From positions 1-64,000 of IMG/VR virus record IMGVR_UViG_3300028048_000055: 64,000 bases of DNA; one strand, 5' to 3'. The translations under genes were made by a program, and so were the position numbers. Within the stretch, counting starts at the first letter, position 1; each line of letters starts with the position of its first letter. The stretch comes from a virus (Duplodnaviria; Caudoviricetes). Shown piece by piece: positions 7,993 to 62,718 of the stretch. A model generated the notes under the pieces. It saw nothing but the letters and a program-made list of their open reading frames with translations. It did no database searches and had not been told where the DNA came from.

Positions 7993-8470
7993 GAAATTAT
8001 ACAAGAATGTCCTTAAAGAATATCAGCAATTCAGTAAGTGTGCTAGACTTAAAGTTGCTGCATTATTAGTTAATGACGGTAGAATTCTTTGCTGTGGCTA
8101 TAATGGAACACCTGCTGGTCAGACTAATTGTAATGAACTGTTCAAGTCTGAAGATGGTAAGTTTTATCTTCGTGAATCGACTAATGATGATTGGCGAGAA
8201 GTTTCTGAAGCTGATTGGAAAGCAATACATCATGAATTCGCAGAACAAAATGAAATACATGCAGAAATGAATTGTATTGCGCAAGGTTTTAGACATGGTA
8301 TTAATGTTGAAAATACTAATTTAGTAATATCTTTACAACCATGTGATAATTGTGCGAAATTAATTGTAGCTTCTGGTATTAAAAATGTATATTTTGTTGA
8401 TACATATGATAGAAATACAAATTCTATTAATTATTTAATATCTAATGGAGTATCAATAGAACAAATATAA
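7976..8470 (+). CDS. dCMP deaminase
   Basis: GYNGTP, HAEMN, PCDNC zinc motifs. Confidence 0.93.
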   Translation: MKLKYKKLYKNVLKEYQQFSKCARLKVAALLVNDGRILCCGYNGTPAGQTNCNELFKSEDGKFYLRESTNDDWREVSEADWKAIHHEFAEQNEIHAEMNCIAQGFRHGINVENTNLVISLQPCDNCAKLIVASGIKNVYFVDTYDRNTNSINYLISNGVSIEQI

Positions 8471-16998: not shown

Positions 16999-18189
16999 AT
17001 GATGCAGATACAAGGCAAATACGGTATTGCTGAAGTTTTTACAGATAATGTGTGTACAGAAGCATATACACAAATTCTTAATATTATGAATCAATGTTGG
17101 GCAAGAAATGCTGATATTAAATTTATGCCAGATATTTCGCCCGGACGTGATGCTTTGGTAGGCACTACCATGAAAGTTACCGATAAGGCAGTTCCAAATT
17201 TAATTGGTCCAGATATTGGATGCGGTATGCTTGTCGCAAAGCTTAAGGACAAGTTTATTGAATTTGGAAAACTTGATAAAGTTATCAAGGAAAAGATTCC
17301 ATCCGGTAAAAGTCATAATGATAAAAAACATCGTTATGCTAAAGAATTTGACGAAGAATTTGAAAAACTTATCGCTAATGTTAAGCGTGAAGAACTTCTG
17401 AGTATTTGTAGCCTTGGGTCGGGCAACCATTTCATTGAATGCGATAAGGATGAAGACGGTGCATTCTATATAGTTATTCATTCCGGTTCTCGTCATTTGG
17501 GTGTTGCTACTTGTGAATATTGGCAAAATCTTGCAATTAAGGATTGTGCTGACTTGACAGCAATTCGAGGTGCTGAAATAGCCAAGTATAAGAACCAAGG
17601 AAAGACGGATGCTGAAATTAAGGAACTTATGAAGGATTATGACCATTTCTCTGTTCCTAAGAATCTTTCTTATTTGACTGGTGAACATATGCAGGGTTAT
17701 CTGCATGATATGGAAATTGTCCAGCAGTTTGCCGTTATGAACCGTGCCGCAATGCTCGATGTTATTGTCAAGGAAATGGGTTTCAAGGTTGTCGAAAAGT
17801 TTGAAACTATTCACAACTATATCGATCTTAAGAATATGATTCTCCGTAAGGGTTCTATTTCTGCACAAGAAGGCGAAAGGGTCATTATTCCTATGAATAT
17901 GAGAGATGGTTCTTTGATTTGTGTCGGTAAGGGAAATCCAGATTGGAATTATTCAGCACCTCATGGAGCAGGTCGTTTAATGACCAGAAGTGATGCTAAG
18001 AACTCAATTTCTATGAAGGAGTATAAAGATGCTATGAAAGGAATTTTCACGTCCTGTGTGTCTTCCGCGACGATTGACGAGTCTCCTATGGCTTATAAGC
18101 CGATGGATGAAATCATAGCAAATATTGAACCTACTTGCACTATCGAAAAGATTATCAAGCCGGTTTATAACTTCAAGGCGGCATTTTAA
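16999..18189 (+). CDS. rtcB: RtcB-family RNA ligase
   Basis: MPD, DIGCG, SLGSGNHFIE, HSGSR, HNY, RKG, IPMNM, SAPHGAGR, DESPMAYK motifs. Confidence 0.95.
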   Translation: MMQIQGKYGIAEVFTDNVCTEAYTQILNIMNQCWARNADIKFMPDISPGRDALVGTTMKVTDKAVPNLIGPDIGCGMLVAKLKDKFIEFGKLDKVIKEKIPSGKSHNDKKHRYAKEFDEEFEKLIANVKREELLSICSLGSGNHFIECDKDEDGAFYIVIHSGSRHLGVATCEYWQNLAIKDCADLTAIRGAEIAKYKNQGKTDAEIKELMKDYDHFSVPKNLSYLTGEHMQGYLHDMEIVQQFAVMNRAAMLDVIVKEMGFKVVEKFETIHNYIDLKNMILRKGSISAQEGERVIIPMNMRDGSLICVGKGNPDWNYSAPHGAGRLMTRSDAKNSISMKEYKDAMKGIFTSCVSSATIDESPMAYKPMDEIIANIEPTCTIEKIIKPVYNFKAAF

Positions 18190-30177: not shown

Positions 30178-31635
30178 TGAACTAACTCCGGCTTAAAAGC
30201 CGGAATCTTCTTTTTCGTTTCTACGACCTACCTTGCCGTTTACCATTGCTGGCTTAACGGTAGAGGATAATGTCTCCACGGAGGCCTGTTCCAGGCACTC
30301 GGTACGTTTAATTGTACCAATAAATTTTACGTTCTTGGCGGCATGGATATCCCTGTCCTCGGCATAACCGCAGGCACACCGAAATATTCTATCTGCAAGA
30401 CTTAATGTATTAAGACATCCACAGGCCGTACAAAGCTTGGTAGTGGGATGTGATTTACTAATCTTGAAAGATTTAGTTCCTTCCATGCTTACCAGTTTCG
30501 CCTTGACCCTGCCGAGATACGAGCACTGTACCTGCCTGCCAAACGAGTTACCACACTTCTTACCGTTTTTCTTACTATGTTTCTTCTTTTTCCATTTAAA
30601 AATCATTTCATCCTGGAAATAGACAGTATTGTAGTTGGCAATAAGATAATGTATCAGCTTGTTCGTGGCATCTACTTTCTTATTGGTAAGGTGTTCGTAT
30701 TCCTTCCTGATCTGGTTACGAAGTTTCCAATAACGCTTTGAATCCTTTTGTTTACGATGTAACTGCTTTTGCAGGTAATTCAGGTATTCGCTTTCTCGCA
30801 CATTGCAGTTGAACTTCTCGCCGTCAGACGTGGTTATGTTGTCCTTGATGCCGAAGTCTAGACCGACTTCTTTGTATAATTTATTATTTTTATAATTTTC
30901 TTTATTTAGACAAACCGAAACATGAATGTATATACCGCTTGCTTTCTTGACAATTCTAGCGTCAGCAAGTTCGTAATTATTCAAGTTTAAAATTTGATTT
31001 AAACCGTACACCTTCAAGTTCTTGAAACCGGGTATAGTAATATGGCTGTTGTCTATAATTTTTACACCGCCGGATAAGATAGGTATAGAATTACACTCGG
31101 ATTTAAATTTCAACATACCTATTTTTATACCTTTCTTCTTAGCTTTTGACAGATTGACTATATCCTGCTTGACGTTTGCAACCATTCCACGATGAAGGTA
31201 AACCGGTAATGTAATATTGTCGTATACCTCGTTTTTGTCCTTATCGAAATGCTTTATGTTCTTGTGTTCAAGATAGTTGTAATCAAATATGTCTATATTC
31301 CGTTCTTCGTTATGTTTAGACAAAGCGATCATGTCGTTACGAATCCATTTTGCCTGCTTGAAGAAAACATTAAATTTCCTGAAAGTTTCCGGTTTGGTCT
31401 GGTGGCAATTAACCTTTAACTCAAATATCCTAATTATTTGGGTTTTTCTACGTTCACGTGTTTCAGCTAAGGATTTCCTTATTTGTTCACGTTCAGTATC
31501 TGTTAATTGTTTTCTTGCCATACATTATATTTATAAAAATTATTTTTAATTTTTGACATATTTACAATTTAGGTCATTTTTATTATATTTAATATGTCTG
31601 CTTGAATTACCACCCTAAAGGGTGGAATCTTGCGC
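30177..31635 (-). mobile_element. IS200/IS605-IS607 superfamily non-autonomous TnpB element
   Basis: higher GC than flanks; right end on - strand CCGGCTTTTAAGCCGG hairpin then AGTTAGTTCAC; related hairpin CCACCCT/AGGGTGG at about 31610; no tnpA. Confidence 0.75.
30193..31521 (-). CDS. tnpB: TnpB RNA-guided endonuclease
   Basis: RuvC-I GLDFGIKD, RuvC-II YFQDE, Zn ribbon CTACG/CACG, RuvC-III DRDIHAAKN. Confidence 0.92.
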   Translation of the reverse strand: MARKQLTDTEREQIRKSLAETRERRKTQIIRIFELKVNCHQTKPETFRKFNVFFKQAKWIRNDMIALSKHNEERNIDIFDYNYLEHKNIKHFDKDKNEVYDNITLPVYLHRGMVANVKQDIVNLSKAKKKGIKIGMLKFKSECNSIPILSGGVKIIDNSHITIPGFKNLKVYGLNQILNLNNYELADARIVKKASGIYIHVSVCLNKENYKNNKLYKEVGLDFGIKDNITTSDGEKFNCNVRESEYLNYLQKQLHRKQKDSKRYWKLRNQIRKEYEHLTNKKVDATNKLIHYLIANYNTVYFQDEMIFKWKKKKHSKKNGKKCGNSFGRQVQCSYLGRVKAKLVSMEGTKSFKISKSHPTTKLCTACGCLNTLSLADRIFRCACGYAEDRDIHAAKNVKFIGTIKRTECLEQASVETLSSTVKPAMVNGKVGRRNEKEDSGF

Positions 31636-42480: not shown

Positions 42481-42542
42481 AATCAACGTAAAAACGAAAA
42501 ATGAAAAAAAGTTTTTATATATAATATAAAATGAGGATGAAA

Positions 42543-42680: not shown

Positions 42681-42994
42681 TGTTCCATAGCTCAGTTGGT
42701 AGAGCGACGGACTGTTTGAAATAGACACTTATATTGGAAACGATATATGAAAATCATCGCTAAGTCGGTGAAACCTGTAAAATGGCAACGCCGAGCAAGG
42801 ATTAGAAATAATCTATGTGTAGAGACTTTATACGATGAGCCTAAGTCAGTAATGATATGGCTAAGACAAAGTCCAGACTACAAACGAGTGTCCAATTTGC
42901 GCGGTGGGGGGCTTAACACCCATGCGGATGCTTGGTAACGAAAGTTATAGTAGTATGAATCCGTTGGTCCCTGGTTCGAGTCCAGGTGGAACAG
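42681..42994 (+). tRNA. tRNA-Asn(GTT) interrupted by a group I intron
   Basis: exon1 42681-42716, exon2 42958-42994 form a perfect cloverleaf. Confidence 0.92.
42717..42957 (+). ncRNA. group I intron (241 nt, no ORF)
   Basis: U.G pair at the 5' splice site in P1, terminal G, core elements TCGGTGAAACC, AACGCCGAGC, GTAGAGACT, AAGACAAAGTCC. Confidence 0.9.
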
Positions 42995-43000
42995 CTAACA

Positions 43001-43482: not shown

Positions 43483-43521
43483 TAGTTTAGAGCAGTGGTT
43501 AGCTTATATTATAAATATTAT

Positions 43522-44280
43522 ATGGAATTAAAAATAAAACATATATGTAAATTTTGTAATATGGAGTTTACTACTGGGGCACAATTAGGAACACATATTT
43601 CTAAACAATGTCTTAAAAATCCAAATAGAGGAATACAAAAGAATTCTAAAATTTGGAAATGTTCAATTTGTGGTAATGATTTTCTTTCACGAAGAAGATT
43701 ACAACAGCATCGCAAAGATGAACATATTAACGAAATTAAAAGCAAATACTATGGGTATCATCCGATATTGAATATACCTTGTCAATTTTGCGGTTTAATT
43801 TGTAAAAGAGCTCGTGATTTAACAAGACATGAAAAATTTTGCAAAGAAAACCCAAATAAACAAATTTGGCAAGGACATAAAACTTCGGATGAAACTAAAA
43901 AGAAATTATCAGAAGCGGCTATTAAAAATCTTAGTGGTACACATTGTAATTGGTTAAATAAAAAGAAATCTTATGCTGAAGAATATTTTGAAACTATATT
44001 TACAAATGCTGAATCACAATATCAAGTTGGAAGATACGTATTAGATTTTGCATGGACTAAATCAAAAATTTATATTGAAGTTGATGGTGAACAGCATTAT
44101 ACTAAAGAAGGTATCGAACACGATAAGATTAGGACAGAATTTTTAATAGAAAATGGTTGGAGACTTTTAAAAAGAATTAGATGGTCTGAATTTCAAAAAC
44201 TTTCTAAAGCTGAACGTGAAAATGAAATTTATAGATTATTACAGACTATCAAAATTCAAGAAGAAACTAAAACGTTATGA
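43522..44280 (+). CDS. Zn-finger + DUF559/Vsr-like endonuclease
   Basis: C2H2-like fingers, Y.LDFAW..KIYIEVDGEQH; TATAAATA upstream. Confidence 0.85.
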   Translation: MELKIKHICKFCNMEFTTGAQLGTHISKQCLKNPNRGIQKNSKIWKCSICGNDFLSRRRLQQHRKDEHINEIKSKYYGYHPILNIPCQFCGLICKRARDLTRHEKFCKENPNKQIWQGHKTSDETKKKLSEAAIKNLSGTHCNWLNKKKSYAEEYFETIFTNAESQYQVGRYVLDFAWTKSKIYIEVDGEQHYTKEGIEHDKIRTEFLIENGWRLLKRIRWSEFQKLSKAERENEIYRLLQTIKIQEETKTL

Positions 44281-45403: not shown

Positions 45404-46039
45404 ATGAATGAATATATATGTAAATTTTGCGGTAAGATTTGTAAAAACATAAATTCTTTAAAAAATCATGAAAGATTATGTAAATTAAATCCTAATAGAC
45501 AAATATCGCCATTTGTAAAATATAATGCAGAGCATGAAACAAGTTGGAATAAAGGGCTTACAAAAGAAAATGATGAAAGAGTTAAGCAAATGGCTGAAAC
45601 TATGAGTCAAAAAATAAGAGCAGGCCTAATACATAACTATGATCATCAAAAAGTATGGACAGAAGAACGTAGAAAAGCACAATCTGAAAGGAAAAAGAAA
45701 TTTTATGAAGAACACCCAGAAAAGCATCCTAATAGCTTAGTAGCTGGTGCACTTAATAAAATGACATATCCTGAAAAATTAGTTACTGAATATTTAAAAG
45801 AACATAATATAACAGCAGAACATAATTGGTATTTTAAAACAGAAAAATTTACAAGATATATAGATTTTTATATAGATGAATTAAAATTATTTATTGAAGT
45901 TGATGGAGAATATTGGCACAAAGATAAACAAAAAGATATTGATAAAGATAATGATGCATTAATGTATGGTTATAAAACATTAAGGTTAAAACCAAAAACA
46001 GTTATAACACAATTAAATGAATTTTTTAATATGGCATAG
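45404..46039 (+). CDS. Zn-finger + DUF559/Vsr-like endonuclease
   Basis: CKFCG..H.RLC, WNKGLTKE, DFY..IEVDGEYWH. Confidence 0.85.
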   Translation: MNEYICKFCGKICKNINSLKNHERLCKLNPNRQISPFVKYNAEHETSWNKGLTKENDERVKQMAETMSQKIRAGLIHNYDHQKVWTEERRKAQSERKKKFYEEHPEKHPNSLVAGALNKMTYPEKLVTEYLKEHNITAEHNWYFKTEKFTRYIDFYIDELKLFIEVDGEYWHKDKQKDIDKDNDALMYGYKTLRLKPKTVITQLNEFFNMA

Positions 46040-48831: not shown

Positions 48832-48941
48832 ACTAAATATTGATTGCAGTCAATATATTCTTCAGCGAGAGGTATACTGATTGACGCCTGCAAACGTTGT
48901 GATGTATACCGGCGCTATTAAAAATATTTTAAAAAGAGGGG

Positions 48942-48970
48942 TTGACAAACCAAAAACTTTTTACTATATT
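48942..48970 (+). promoter_or_regulatory. sigma70-type promoter of tRNA block 3
   Basis: TTGACA-N17-TATATT. Confidence 0.8.
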
Positions 48971-49032
48971 TTAATCAAACAAAAAACAAAAACAGGAAAA
49001 AAATTTTTATATATAATATAAAAGGTAACAAA

Positions 49033-49140
49033 ATGAACAAGAACTTTAACATTGAATTCATCGCGATTGCAGCAGAACGTATTGCAGAATTTGCAGAACG
49101 TGTTTTTGCGATTGACAATTCAGTGCACAGGTTCAAGTAA
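49033..49140 (+). CDS. attenuator leader peptide 3 MNKNFNIEFIAIAAERIAEFAERVFAIDNSVHRFK
   Basis: AAGGT SD; A6 E4 F5 I5 V2. Confidence 0.9.
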   Translation: MNKNFNIEFIAIAAERIAEFAERVFAIDNSVHRFK

Positions 49141-49170
49141 ACGAAATTACTTAAGGTATGAAGAATTTAC

Positions 49171-49205
49171 GGTTCCTGTGTATAACACAGGGACCTTAAT
49201 TTTTT
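49171..49205 (+). terminator. attenuator terminator 3
   Basis: GGTTCCTGTG/CACAGGGACC plus T-rich tail. Confidence 0.85.
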
Positions 49206-49215
49206 ATATAACTTT

Positions 49216-49289
49216 GGGACTTTAGAATACGTTAGCTAGTTCACCGCCCTTTCACGGCGGAGAATCGGGGGCAGCACCCGGAAGTCCTA
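49216..49289 (+). tRNA. tRNA-Glu(TTC)
   Basis: cloverleaf, T loop GGCAGCA. Confidence 0.85.
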
Positions 49290-49297
49290 CTAATTTT

Positions 49298-49368
49298 GGG
49301 CTTATGATGTAATGGTAGCATAATAGCTTTGCAAGCTATTTGTTAGGTTTCGAATACCTATAGGTCCA
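49298..49368 (+). tRNA. tRNA-Ala(TGC)
   Basis: cloverleaf, G3.U70. Confidence 0.88.
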
Positions 49369-49377
49369 CTATATTAT

Positions 49378-49451
49378 GCCGCTCAATCCGAATCCAGTGA
49401 TCGGACGGGACTGAAAATCCCAGAAGCTCAGGGCAGCACTGAGGGGCGGCA
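49378..49451 (+). tRNA. tRNA-Phe(GAA)
   Basis: cloverleaf, atypical D and T loops. Confidence 0.78.
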
Positions 49452-49463
49452 CGAAAACATTAT

Positions 49464-49537
49464 GGGCCAGTAGCCTAGTAGGAAAGGCACCGCACCTGCA
49501 ATGCGGAGTTCATGGGTTCGATCCCCATCTGTGTCCA
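49464..49537 (+). tRNA. tRNA-Ala(TGC), C33, bulged acceptor
   Basis: cloverleaf, G3.U70. Confidence 0.78.
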
Positions 49538-49547
49538 CTAAATTTTT

Positions 49548-49620
49548 GGGCTCGCATGTACCCTGGAGGCGAGCTGGCCTTGCAAGCCGGCTGAGATGGG
49601 TTCGACACCCACCGGGTCCA
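49548..49620 (+). tRNA. tRNA-Ala(TGC), weak D arm
   Basis: G3.U70; anticodon and T arms clear. Confidence 0.75.
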
Positions 49621-49677
49621 TGAAAATAAATTTACATTAAGGAGTTAAAATGGGAACTGATATGTAAAAATAAATAT

Positions 49678-49750
49678 GGGCTTATGGTGTAATTGGTAAC
49701 ATGTCGGCTTTGCAAGCCGAAGAGTCCGGAATCGTCCTCCGGTAGGTCCA
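49678..49750 (+). tRNA. tRNA-Ala(TGC)
   Basis: G3.U70, atypical T loop. Confidence 0.8.
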
Positions 49751-49755
49751 CTAAT

Positions 49756-49830
49756 GGGGGCAAAGGTTACTTTTCGCAACTTTTGCACAAAGAGTTCCTA
49801 ACTATATTGGTTCAATTCCAATAGCCTCCA
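49756..49830 (+). ncRNA. Ala-type acceptor/T-arm minihelix fused to a permuted TCCTA scaffold
   Basis: GGGGGC/GCCTCC-A with G3.U70; T-ACTTTT-C-GCAA-CTT-TTGC-ACA-AAGAGT-TCCTAA. Confidence 0.65.
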
Positions 49831-49840
49831 CTAAATTTAT

Positions 49841-49915
49841 GGGGCTGTAGCTCAGTTTTGGTGGAGCGGAAGACTGAAGATCTTCGCGTCGCAGGTTCGA
49901 TTCCTGCCGGGGGCA
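49841..49915 (+). tRNA. tRNA-Phe(GAA)-like, mismatched acceptor stem
   Basis: GGGGCTG vs CGGGGGC (three G.G pairs). Confidence 0.65.
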
Positions 49916-49922
49916 CTAATAT

Positions 49923-49997
49923 GGTTCTATCGTCTACGGAAGGCTAGGATGTAACCCTCTCAAGGTTATGAATTTGGTTCGACCCCAAATGGAACTA
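49923..49997 (+). tRNA. tRNA-Glu(CTC)
   Basis: cloverleaf. Confidence 0.88.
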
Positions 49998-50007
49998 TTA
50001 AAAATAT

Positions 50008-50081
50008 GGGACTTTAGAATATGCTGGTTAGTTCGCTGCCCTTTCAAGGCGGAAAGTCCGGATCATCGCCGGAAAGTCCTA
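50008..50081 (+). tRNA. tRNA-Glu(TTC)
   Basis: cloverleaf, paralog of 49216. Confidence 0.85.
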
Positions 50082-50090
50082 CTAAAATAT

Positions 50091-50164
50091 ATCCGATTAA
50101 CTCAGTGGTTCAGAGTGACGCTTTGACTAAGCGTAAGTCATAGGTTCGAATCCTTTATTGGGTA
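50091..50164 (+). tRNA. tRNA-Val(GAC)
   Basis: cloverleaf. Confidence 0.9.
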
Positions 50165-50168
50165 CTAT

Positions 50169-50245
50169 CCATAGGCATAACGATTGGTTTTCCGTTTGCC
50201 ACTCTGATAAGGTGGAGACTGTAGGTTCAAATCCTACCCTATGGA
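50169..50245 (+). tRNA. tRNA-Ile(GAT)
   Basis: cloverleaf. Confidence 0.85.
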
Positions 50246-50254
50246 CTAAAATAT

Positions 50255-50331
50255 CGGCAACTATCTCCTCGCTCTGATAAGGCGTTGAAAGAGTAATTGG
50301 TTACATGTAGGTTCAATTCCTATGTTGCCGA
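50255..50331 (+). tRNA. D-arm-less tRNA-Ile(GAT)-like RNA with expanded variable region
   Basis: perfect acceptor CGGCAAC/GTTGCCG and T arm; CTGATAA loop. Confidence 0.6.
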
Positions 50332-50395
50332 CTAAATTAAATTTTAATATTTAAAAGGATTGACATTAGTCAATCCTTTTTCTATATTATAGTAT

Positions 50396-51247
50396 ATGGG
50401 AAGAATTTTTAATAAAATGTATATTGTGTCTGGTGCGGTTAAACCTACTGATATATTGGACTATTATCGTTTTCAAACAAAGAAGATGTTAGATGATATT
50501 CCTTATGGTTATACTCATCAGTTATTTGATGAAGCCATTGAAGTTGATTCTACTGGAAAGCATATTGAATATGATAAATTCCACTGTGATAATTATTGGA
50601 CCACATCAGATGAAACACAGCTTAAAGATTTAAATTGTCATCGAGTTGCAAAGATTAACGGTGTTTGGATGACACTTGATATTGATCCGTTTGAAGACGA
50701 TGTAGTTGATTACCTTGAAGGAAATGGCTATTATCAGAAACTTGGTGAATATGGTTCAGGCTGGTTTGATAAAAATCATAGACCAGAATTTAAACAAGCA
50801 ATTTTTACGAGAATTCATCAGTCATTAAAATTAGAATGGGATTTTAAACATAATTGTTATGCTGGTATTGTTCCAAATATGAAAAAAGATGAACTTACAA
50901 TTTACGCTGGTGATCGCCCTTACAATTATAAAAAACAAATTGGTAATATTAAGGTTGACGGTAAAAAAGTAATTGTAAAAGTTAATGACGACATTTATGA
51001 ATTTGAAAAAGAAACTGATCAAGGCTTTATTGATTTCGTAAAACTTTGTCTTGATGCAAAAAATAAAGTTGTCTTTGGTCGTGAAACGGGTGAAACTGAA
51101 TGGGATAAGTCAGAATGGTCAGACCGTAGGATTATGACAGAAGCACGAATGAAAGCAAGGAATGTAACTCTCGATGAATTAACTAAAGATGAGATTACAT
51201 GGAAGCAAGAAGATTTTAACAAACTTTTTAATGCATATAATGAATGA
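50396..51247 (+). CDS. hypothetical protein
   Basis: 283 aa ORF after promoter. Confidence 0.7.
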   Translation: MGRIFNKMYIVSGAVKPTDILDYYRFQTKKMLDDIPYGYTHQLFDEAIEVDSTGKHIEYDKFHCDNYWTTSDETQLKDLNCHRVAKINGVWMTLDIDPFEDDVVDYLEGNGYYQKLGEYGSGWFDKNHRPEFKQAIFTRIHQSLKLEWDFKHNCYAGIVPNMKKDELTIYAGDRPYNYKKQIGNIKVDGKKVIVKVNDDIYEFEKETDQGFIDFVKLCLDAKNKVVFGRETGETEWDKSEWSDRRIMTEARMKARNVTLDELTKDEITWKQEDFNKLFNAYNE

Positions 51248-51353
51248 GTTATTTCTTGGTGAAATAGACGCCACAGTTTAAGTAAAAGAGATTAAGTAAT
51301 AAAAATAAGGATTGACTAATGTCAATCCTTATTTAAATTTTTATAATAATTTA

Positions 51354-52566: not shown

Positions 52567-53331
52567 ATGAATTACAGAAACATATATTATAAGATAATTG
52601 AGAAAGCAAAAAACGAGGATAAAAATGGACACAGACAGTTAGGTTATTTTGAAAAACATCATATATTACCTAAGTCATTAGGCGGTAGTAATGATAAAAA
52701 TAATTTAGTTAAACTTACAGCACGTGAACATTTTATTTGTCATTGGCTACTTGTTAAAATGTATGATAAAGGAACTGATGAAAGAAATAAAATGCTATGT
52801 GCTCTTTGGCGAATGCGTTCAAATCCATTACAAAATCATATACGGTATACTAATGCTAGAACATATGAAAATTTAAGAATAGAATATTCAAAAATTATAA
52901 GTAATCAAATGCATATTATACAAATGGGTAAAAACAATTCACAATTTGGAACTAAATGGTATACAAATAGAAATACAGGAGAAAGTAAAAAATTTAAAGA
53001 AAAACCAAAAGAAGAATATTGGATTGAAGGTAGAAATTTGTTTCATGGCGAAAGCAGTGTATTAAAAATAAAATTAATAACATTACGACATACTGAAACT
53101 AAAGTGCCGCAAAAAAATTATTTAAAATCAGTTGATGATGCACATAAATTATGGGATGAGTTTCATTCTGGAACTTATGAAAAATTAGATGACTTTGCTA
53201 AAATACACAATAAAACTAGAAGTGCAATATTTGTAAAATTTAAAAGATATATACCAGCATTTAATACAGATAAAAAACGTAGTTGCAGAAGTTATAAATC
53301 AAATAATATATTAATTGGAAAATATGAATAA
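52567..53331 (+). CDS. HNH homing endonuclease
   Basis: EKHHILPKSLGG...NLVKLTAREHFICHWLL. Confidence 0.9.
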   Translation: MNYRNIYYKIIEKAKNEDKNGHRQLGYFEKHHILPKSLGGSNDKNNLVKLTAREHFICHWLLVKMYDKGTDERNKMLCALWRMRSNPLQNHIRYTNARTYENLRIEYSKIISNQMHIIQMGKNNSQFGTKWYTNRNTGESKKFKEKPKEEYWIEGRNLFHGESSVLKIKLITLRHTETKVPQKNYLKSVDDAHKLWDEFHSGTYEKLDDFAKIHNKTRSAIFVKFKRYIPAFNTDKKRSCRSYKSNNILIGKYE

Positions 53332-53887: not shown

Positions 53888-54607
53888 ATGAATTACTTAG
53901 AATTAAATGATAAAGGTAAGCTCGGAAGTGATGAGCAAAAATTGGCCGACTATTTTGGAGTCGGTCATTATACTACATTTTATAAAAAGCATTTTTTACA
54001 AAATAAAATAAAACTCACTAAGGATGATTTTATTGCAGGCGTAATTCCAGTAATGTTTTGCGCTATGAAAAAACTTAACATTGATTATAAGCATGATGAT
54101 TATCCTGAACAGCTACAAAAATATCTTCATCGTAGAATTTGGGAATCGACTCTTGGTCGTATAAAAACTAGTGTCTTTAATGATTATCTATTTGGACCTG
54201 TTTTTATTAAACCAAAAGATAAATTAAAAAAGTTTACTGGTTTTGTTTTAAATTCAAGAGATGATTGGCTTCTTACTGAAGGCGCAGGCGATAGCACGAA
54301 AATTATCTGTTCAAAACCGGTAAAATGGGTTACAGAATATCGTATTCCTGTAATTAATGGCGTCGCAAGAGATTATTGTCATTATTTTGGAAATCCAGGT
54401 ATATTTGTAGATAAGGCTGTAATTCAAAATATGATAGGTGATTGGAAAGATTCTCCAAAAGCATATTGCTTGGATGTTGGAGTCTTAGATACTGGAGAAA
54501 CTGCATTAATAGAAGTTAATGATGCATTTAGCTGCGGTAGTTACTCAATGAGTGCTGAAACCTATGGTGATTTACTGACAACAAGATGGAATGAGTTAAA
54601 AGGTTGA
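53888..54607 (+). CDS. ATP-grasp (R2K/DUF4343-like) protein
   Basis: DYPEQL, FIKP..K.FTG, EYR, LDVG..LIEVND. Confidence 0.8.
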   Translation: MNYLELNDKGKLGSDEQKLADYFGVGHYTTFYKKHFLQNKIKLTKDDFIAGVIPVMFCAMKKLNIDYKHDDYPEQLQKYLHRRIWESTLGRIKTSVFNDYLFGPVFIKPKDKLKKFTGFVLNSRDDWLLTEGAGDSTKIICSKPVKWVTEYRIPVINGVARDYCHYFGNPGIFVDKAVIQNMIGDWKDSPKAYCLDVGVLDTGETALIEVNDAFSCGSYSMSAETYGDLLTTRWNELKG

Positions 54608-54638
54608 CGAAAGTCAACCTTTTTTCTATATTTAAATT

Positions 54639-54953: not shown

Positions 54954-55017
54954 TAGGATAAAGGTTGACGAAAGTCAATCTTTTTTCTATATTATAATAT
55001 GGAATAAAGGATTAATA

Positions 55018-60725: not shown

Positions 60726-61262
60726 ATGTCAATAAGTTTAATTGAAAAATATGGAGAAGATTATATACGTAATGTTTTTAAAACTGCCAAAACAGTTGAT
60801 GAAGCATGTGAAAAATTACAAACAATAACAAAATATTTAAATTATTATGCAAAAGAATTAAATTGTATTGATGATTATAATAGAATAAAAATTAATTCTA
60901 GTCAAATTGTTAAAGAACGTTTAAAAGATTATCCAGATGCATACATAATGAAAAATGTTAATGGTGTAGTTACACGTACTATAAATGATGATGCATGGCT
61001 TAAATTAATTTTTGAAAATAAAATTAGTAGTAAAAAACAAACAATATTACGTATTCTTATTAAAGCAGGATATAAAGAAAATAAATGTGAATGTTGCGGT
61101 ATTAATGAATGGAATAAAAAACCAATAACTTTACAATTACATCACAAAAATGGAAATCCACGTGATAATTGTTTAGAAAATTTAGAAATATTATGTCCAA
61201 ATTGTCATTCACAAACTAATAATTATGGAAGTAAAAATGCGGCATTACATATAAAAGATTAA
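60726..61262 (+). CDS. HNH endonuclease
   Basis: CECCG...LQLHHKNGNPRDN..ENLEILCPNCHS. Confidence 0.9.
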   Translation: MSISLIEKYGEDYIRNVFKTAKTVDEACEKLQTITKYLNYYAKELNCIDDYNRIKINSSQIVKERLKDYPDAYIMKNVNGVVTRTINDDAWLKLIFENKISSKKQTILRILIKAGYKENKCECCGINEWNKKPITLQLHHKNGNPRDNCLENLEILCPNCHSQTNNYGSKNAALHIKD

Positions 61263-61884: not shown

Positions 61885-62718
61885 ATGAAGTTAAAATACA
61901 TATGTCAATATTGTAATAAAGAATTAACTAGGCCATGTGCATTAGCTATACATCAACGTGTTTGTAAATTAAATCCAAATAGACAACCGTTAATAAATAA
62001 TGGTAATTTAAATATAGCTAAATATCATAAACCTAAGGCTCCATATGGAACATGGAAATGTAAGTGGTGTAATAATGACATTATTTTTGATACTAGAAAA
62101 CAATTAAAAGAACATTTAAAAGAAAAACATCCAGAAAAACGTAATGCATGGAATAAAGGCTTAACAAAAGAAACTGATGAACGTGTTAAACAATTTGGTC
62201 AAACATATTCTAAGCGAATAAAAAATAAAGAAATATCTGCACTTTTTGCAGGCAAAAAACATACAGATGAATGGCGAAAAAATCATTCAGAATTACAAAA
62301 AGAAAGATATAAAGGAATATCGATATATGCAACCGTAAGGGAAAAACGAAAATCTTATCCTGAACAATATTTTGATAAAATATTTAGTGATGCAGAAAAA
62401 CAATATCATGTAGATAGTTATTTTTTAGATTATGCATGGCCATATATTAAATTATATATTGAAGTTGATGGTGAACAACATTATACTGAATCTGGTTTAC
62501 TTCATGATAAAGAAAGAGCAGAAATATTAAGTAAATTAGGTTGGAATTGTATTACGCGTATTAGATGGAAAAATTATATAAAATTAACAACTAATGAAAA
62601 AGAAAATTTTATAAATAATTTATTAAATAAAATTAATATTTTTAAAAATGAAACTATAGGAAGCAAAACAGACTGCCGGCTCCTATATACGGTGTACAAC
62701 GTCGAAGATAAGGTCTAG
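61885..62718 (+). CDS. Zn-finger + DUF559/Vsr-like endonuclease
   Basis: paralog of 43522; LDYAW..LYIEVDGEQHY. Confidence 0.85.
   Translation: MKLKYICQYCNKELTRPCALAIHQRVCKLNPNRQPLINNGNLNIAKYHKPKAPYGTWKCKWCNNDIIFDTRKQLKEHLKEKHPEKRNAWNKGLTKETDERVKQFGQTYSKRIKNKEISALFAGKKHTDEWRKNHSELQKERYKGISIYATVREKRKSYPEQYFDKIFSDAEKQYHVDSYFLDYAWPYIKLYIEVDGEQHYTESGLLHDKERAEILSKLGWNCITRIRWKNYIKLTTNEKENFINNLLNKINIFKNETIGSKTDCRLLYTVYNVEDKV

Follow-up and report, generated by a model that had tools for sequence, protein, structure and literature searches.

A cluster of tRNA genes, each block of which is preceded by a short open reading frame, lies in the first 64 kb of a 165-kb IMG/VR virus record (IMGVR_UViG_3300028048_000055; Caudoviricetes) that is estimated to be about 40% complete. 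This stretch of 64,000 nucleotides is referred to below as the window. Its ORFs are nearly all on the + strand, its G+C content is about 31%, and it encodes a clamp loader, a terminase fragment, an RtcB-type tRNA ligase (phrog_1075, E 2e-122) and an R2K ATP-grasp protein. The only long minus-strand gene is an IS-type transposase, which sits at a local break in GC skew, and whose best genomic relative, 39% identical, is in an unnamed metagenome bin. All of the tRNA genes lie between 42.6 and 63.3 kb, and are arranged in six modules, each consisting of a leader ORF, followed by a hairpin and T-run, and then by a tRNA block. Two complete relatives with terminal repeats were found, here called G001 (424 kb) and G002 (416 kb), while a nucleotide search of GenBank phages returned only tRNA-sized hits, so there is no cultured relative. 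The third module is the subject of this analysis, and its features are collected in Table 1.

Table 1. Positions of the features of the third module and of other elements mentioned in the text.
Feature	Position	Strand	Description
Promoter	48942-48970	+	Sigma-70 type, TTGACA-17 nt-TATATT; conserved in G001, absent at this place in G002
A/T palindrome	49005-49023	+	Perfect, 8-nt arms and 3-nt loop, in the 5' UTR directly before the Shine-Dalgarno sequence
Shine-Dalgarno sequence	49022-49025	+	AAGG
Leader ORF	49033-49140	+	35 codons plus TAA stop (49138-49140)
Segment 1	49041-49058	+	5' strand of a long hairpin within the coding region; pairs with 49116-49134
Regulatory codons	49051-49113	+	Codons 7-27
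Segment 2	49122-49142	+	5' strand of the antiterminator; contains the leader stop codon
Segment 3	49165-49182	+	Partner of segment 2; overlaps the 5' arm of the terminator
Intrinsic terminator	49171-49205	+	11-bp stem (6 G-C pairs) at 49171-49195, 3-nt loop, then a TTAATTTTTT tail
tRNA block 3	49216-50333	+	12 tRNA genes and one minihelix RNA
Glu-like	49216-49293		Anticodon UUC; GCAGCAC T-loop
Ala	49298		ARAGORN
Phe-like	49378-49455		Anticodon GAA; GCAGCAC T-loop
Ala	49464		ARAGORN
Ala	49548		ARAGORN
Mini-ORF	49651-49668		Five codons, strong AAGGAG Shine-Dalgarno sequence, between the third and fourth Ala tRNA genes
Ala	49678		ARAGORN
Ala-type minihelix RNA	49756		
Phe	49844		Rfam
Glu CTC	49922		ARAGORN
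Glu TTC	50008		ARAGORN
Val GAC	50091		ARAGORN
Ile GAT	50169		Rfam
Ile-like	50255-50333		Anticodon GAU; no D arm, long extra arm
Hairpin at end of unit	50353-50388	+	Carries a -35 box and is followed by a -10 box; precedes ORF 50396-51247
Similar hairpins	51303-51347, 54598-54632, 54960-54993		TTGAC -35 box in the stem, TATATT -10 box following
Palindromes of other modules	near 42516, 52097, 57352 and 60329		Upstream of leaders 1, 4, 5 and 6
Attenuator 2	44797		Lacks the palindrome
Interrupted tRNA-Asn (GTT)	42681-42995		Insert of about 240 nt in the anticodon loop
Putative homing endonucleases	43495-44280, 45404-46039, 52567-53331, 60726-61262, 61885-62718		DUF559/Vsr-type nuclease with C2H2 zinc fingers, or HNH
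RtcB-type tRNA ligase	16999-18189		phrog_1075
R2K ATP-grasp protein	53888-54607		
IS-type transposase	30193-31521	-	

To evaluate the composition of the leader, the residues encoded by its core were compared with those of the phage's own proteins. Codons 7-27 contain 6 Ala, 4 Glu, 3 Phe, 5 Ile, 1 Val and 2 Arg (both CGT), so that 19 of 21 belong to the set Ala, Glu, Phe, Ile and Val. In 108 long ORFs of the same phage these five residues make up 30.4%, which gives a binomial P(>=19/21) of 1.6e-8, and none of 26,909 sliding 21-codon windows exceeds 15. Interestingly, all six Ala codons are GCA or GCG, although GCT accounts for 41% of Ala codons in the phage, and no Ile codon is ATA. Both choices fit the anticodons UGC and GAU. 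The two Arg codons are conserved although the Arg tRNA is in block 4, and they form the apical stem of the coding-region hairpin described below.

The gap-free block downstream of the leader holds 4 Ala, 3 Glu, 2 Phe, 2 Ile and 1 Val tRNA genes, which are the phage's only Ala, Glu, Phe and Ile tRNAs. ARAGORN detected seven of these, and a search with Rfam added two. The remaining three are non-canonical tRNA-likes, missed by both programs, that could be assigned only by folding and a cloverleaf script. Lowering the ARAGORN thresholds or allowing introns gave spurious calls and still missed the odd tRNAs, and the cloverleaf script also produces false positives, such as T-loop hits. However, all five amino acids remain represented if the three non-canonical members are dropped. 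The inventory of tRNA genes and the count of 19 cognate codons given in the initial annotation are therefore correct, with the caveat that three members are atypical. Elsewhere in the window, the insert in the anticodon loop of the tRNA-Asn gives a sub-threshold Rfam group I intron match (27.7 bits, E 4.5e-5).

We next examined the RNA structures that could form between the leader and the block. The terminator is the top-ranked terminator-like site of the region (-20.1 kcal/mol, z -3.95), although its tail is interrupted, with TTAA before the six T. The first tRNA gene starts 10 nt after the T-run, leaving no room for a promoter, and the block can therefore only be reached by reading through this terminator. 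As proposed in the initial annotation, the end of the leader pairs with the 5' side of the terminator. This pairing forms an antiterminator. TGCACAGG (49124-49131) pairs with CCTGTGTA (49175-49182), and GTAAA (49137-49141), which includes the TAA stop, pairs with TTTAC (49166-49170). The duplex energy is -17.2 kcal/mol, compared to a mean of -8.2 kcal/mol for shuffled sequences (p=0.002). The same placement of the stop codon inside the antiterminator recurs with unrelated sequences in attenuators 4-6 and in G001 and G002. The complete leader also folds far better than shuffles (-55.2 kcal/mol, z -6.9), forming a long predicted hairpin in which segment 1 would sequester part of segment 2, as an anti-antiterminator or pause hairpin. 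Structure covariation was uninformative. The antiterminator shows no two-sided covariation among eight homologues of attenuator 3, which fall into two classes and were retrieved with a pattern that fixes the 5' arm of the terminator.

To examine how the position of a ribosome might affect these structures, a footprint of -17 to +12 nt around the A-site codon was constrained to be unpaired, and the nascent RNA was folded up to the terminator loop. The antiterminator was predicted for A-site codons 2-27 (probability 0.67-1.00 and mostly 0.9 or higher, with codon 17 the exception at 0.10), and was abolished from codon 28 to the stop. That boundary coincides with the end of the cognate run. In a divergent leader found in relatives (class II, below), which folds in the same way but is two codons longer, the Ala/Glu/Phe run ends at codon 28 and blocking sets in at codon 30. 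At equilibrium the full transcript always folds into the terminator (P=1.00 at every ribosome position), and the switch must therefore be kinetic, as in trp. Without any ribosome, the nascent RNA is predicted to form the antiterminator (P=0.88), and default termination in the absence of translation is therefore not supported.

The presence of six modules in the window allowed us to evaluate whether each leader matches its own block. Accordingly, we scored the fraction of each leader's codons that can be read by the tRNAs of each block. The diagonal averages 0.49-0.58 and the off-diagonal 0.08-0.10, and the real leader-to-block assignment is the single best of 720 permutations in the window, 720 in G001 and 120 in G002. 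Because of the false positives noted above, the test was also run with ARAGORN calls only, with the same outcome. For leader 3, 62% of codons (65% at the amino-acid level) can be read by the tRNAs of block 3, compared to 21% or less for any other block. The match is not a copying artefact of leader DNA derived from tRNA genes, since only 7-8-nt chance matches exist between the leader and the block.

Pattern searches of IMG/VR gave two classes of leader 3. Class I resembles the leader of the window, and occurs in the window, G002 and the contigs L073 and L074. In the window, G002 and L073 the blocks contain Val and Ile tRNAs, and G002, which has two Val tRNAs, has three Val codons in its leader core. 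All five non-synonymous differences among class I leaders stay within the set Ala, Glu, Phe, Ile and Val. Class II has a core made only of Ala, Glu and Phe codons, plus one His and one Arg, and occurs in G001 (locus L019) and in contigs L022, L072, L076, L077, L079 and L080. Of the six contigs that carry a leader 3 without Ile or Val in its core, the five whose block could be read (L022 is cut off at the locus end) hold only Glu, Ala and Phe tRNAs, and class II blocks also contain an anticodon-less tRNA body. Every TGATAA in these blocks was inspected, and none lies in an anticodon loop. In contrast, L074 (IMGVR_UViG_3300037512_002295, module at 8205-8392) joins a class I leader with five Ile and two Val codons to a block that holds only Phe, Glu and Ala tRNAs. 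Its terminator is class I on the 5' side and class II on the 3' side, suggesting that it is probably a recent recombinant, but it still shows that a mismatch can exist.

Movements of tRNA genes between blocks are also mirrored in the leaders. In G001 the two Ile tRNAs lie in block 6, whose leader has four Ile codons, compared to one in the window, and two further contigs (L086 and L088) show the same pairing. In G002 the Cys and Gln tRNAs have moved from block 6 to block 5, and leader 5 gained two Cys and two Gln codons while leader 6 lost them. Over all modules, where a tRNA is present in one genome and absent in another, the leader has more of its codons where the tRNA is present in 15 comparisons, fewer in 0, and equal numbers in 4. 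These comparisons are not phylogenetically independent, and we count about seven separate leader changes. Codon-level covariation of GCC/GCT codons with an Ala GGC tRNA gave a mixed result and was not used. ARAGORN also finds no Arg tRNA in block 4 of G001 and G002, although their leader 4 keeps 5-6 Arg codons, which is either a detection failure or a second leader-block mismatch. The ORFs interspersed among the tRNA genes look like homing endonucleases, and are likely agents of tRNA gene shuffling between blocks.

Taken together, the interpretation in the initial annotation, that this element is an Ala/Glu/Phe/Ile/Val attenuator, is supported, and the element is probably a trp-type, ribosome-mediated transcription attenuator that gates a phage tRNA operon. 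This reading is based entirely on computational evidence. That the leader is translated, that termination is regulated and what signal is sensed are inferred, and coupling of transcription and translation in the unknown host is assumed. In the proposed model, the leader mRNA is transcribed from its own promoter or from upstream, and is translated. A ribosome that runs through to the stop codon would cover segment 2, so that the terminator hairpin forms and RNA polymerase stops 10 nt before the first tRNA. If decoding of any of the five classes of codon is slow, the ribosome would linger within codons 7-27, leaving segment 2 free to pair with segment 3 before the 3' arm of the terminator is made, and polymerase would read into the 12 tRNA genes. 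Since those tRNAs read the codons that caused the pause, the circuit would be a negative feedback on decoding capacity.

It remains possible, although we consider it unlikely, that the attenuator works in this way but that its physiological input is not the size of the tRNA pool. A stalled ribosome cannot distinguish a missing tRNA from an uncharged one, classical attenuators such as those of trp and his appear to report charging, and the six modules, which together cover all 20 amino acids, would also respond to a global slowdown. However, making more tRNA does not relieve amino-acid starvation, and the tight, block-specific and co-evolving match between leader and tRNA content is what a supply sensor needs. 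The RtcB tRNA ligase also points to tRNA damage as a relevant stress.

A less likely alternative is that the hairpin is a constitutive, leaky terminator or insulator and the short ORF an unrelated small gene or an expression aid, with the tRNAs made by leak-through or by a terminator-insensitive polymerase and the codon match having no regulatory meaning. The imperfect terminator tail, the possibility that the conserved A/T palindrome is a phage-specific promoter or operator, and the lack of a promoter belonging to the module in G002 favor this idea. It does not, however, explain the permutation result, the shift of Ile, Val, Cys and Gln codons together with their tRNA genes, the substitutions that stay within the cognate set, or the recurrent placement of the stop codon inside a strand complementary to the 5' arm of the terminator.

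The palindrome, which precedes five of the six leaders and is conserved in G001 and G002, could be an operator, an RNA hairpin or a translation element, and raises the possibility that the switch is set by a protein or small RNA that binds it or the leader RNA, in the manner of a repressor or a TRAP- or PyrR-type factor, with leader translation being incidental. The only studied inducible tRNA array, the trn operon of Anabaena PCC 7120, is controlled by a repressor, TrcR (PMC8421152; PMC10272220). We regard this possibility as the most doubtful of the three, because a shared operator cannot give block-specific control and does not explain the codon composition, and because the palindrome is missing from attenuator 2. 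The two mechanisms could, however, coexist.

In mechanism, the element resembles the multivalent leaders of enterobacterial amino-acid operons, such as those of ilvGMEDA (Ile/Leu/Val) and thrL (Thr/Ile), in the general class that includes trpL, hisL, leuL and pheL (PMC3082878). Both have a short leader ORF with a run of regulatory codons for several amino acids, alternative 2:3 and 3:4 hairpins, a stop codon at the antiterminator strand, and an intrinsic terminator before the regulated genes. The regulated genes of described members encode amino-acid biosynthesis or aminoacyl-tRNA synthetase proteins, but here they are 12 tRNAs, with no ORF in 49206-50350, so that the product would feed back directly on decoding of the leader, and the module occurs six times per phage genome, each copy tuned to its own tRNA block. 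The pheST attenuator of E. coli, in which a Phe-rich leader appears to control phenylalanyl-tRNA synthetase, likewise applies attenuation to a component of the translation apparatus belonging to the amino acid that is sensed, but it controls a protein gene and senses one amino acid. T-box riboswitches also use a terminator/antiterminator decision that reports the state of a specific tRNA, but they bind uncharged tRNA directly, need no translation, and control aminoacyl-tRNA synthetase and amino-acid genes. No match to a T-box or to the His, Leu, Thr, Trp or Phe leader families of Rfam was found even at E<=10 over 48900-49300, and the best hit, to PyrG_leader, is noise (21.4 bits against a gathering score of 65). 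The Anabaena array, like the phage blocks, consists of supernumerary tRNA genes associated with rtcB, and is switched on when translation is impaired, as is inferred for the phage blocks, but its repressor binds direct repeats at the promoter as a single switch for the whole array rather than codon-specific blocks, and that paper mentions no leader, attenuator or terminator. In full-text literature searches, we found no published account of leader-peptide attenuation of tRNA genes.

If this reading is right, the logic of the trp operon extends to the tRNAs themselves, as a self-correcting supply circuit with no dedicated regulator, and would explain how giant phages with dozens of tRNA genes could express them on demand rather than constitutively. 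It would also give the idea that phage tRNAs compensate for loss of host tRNAs a directly testable sensor, and the leaders, being short, modular and codon-specific, could serve as reporters of decoding speed for chosen codons. More tentatively, the six attenuators may form a modular surveillance system for decoding capacity, in which each switches on only the tRNA block whose codons are being read slowly. This would let the phage replace tRNAs that host anticodon nucleases or host shut-off have removed, alongside its RtcB repair ligase, with leaders and blocks co-evolving as homing endonucleases shuffle the tRNA genes between blocks.

The tRNA region of phage T5 has a similar gene mix, with tRNA genes interspersed with HNH homing endonucleases, small ORFs and tRNA-like stable RNAs, but the small ORFs that precede T5 tRNAs show no enrichment for cognate residues, and no analogous attenuators were found there. 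Within block 3 of the window, the mini-ORF between the third and fourth Ala tRNA genes was not found in relatives, whereas G002 carries two copies of the Ile-like type that lacks a D arm. The hairpin that ends the unit, and three similar ones further downstream, look like composite terminator and promoter elements between transcription units.
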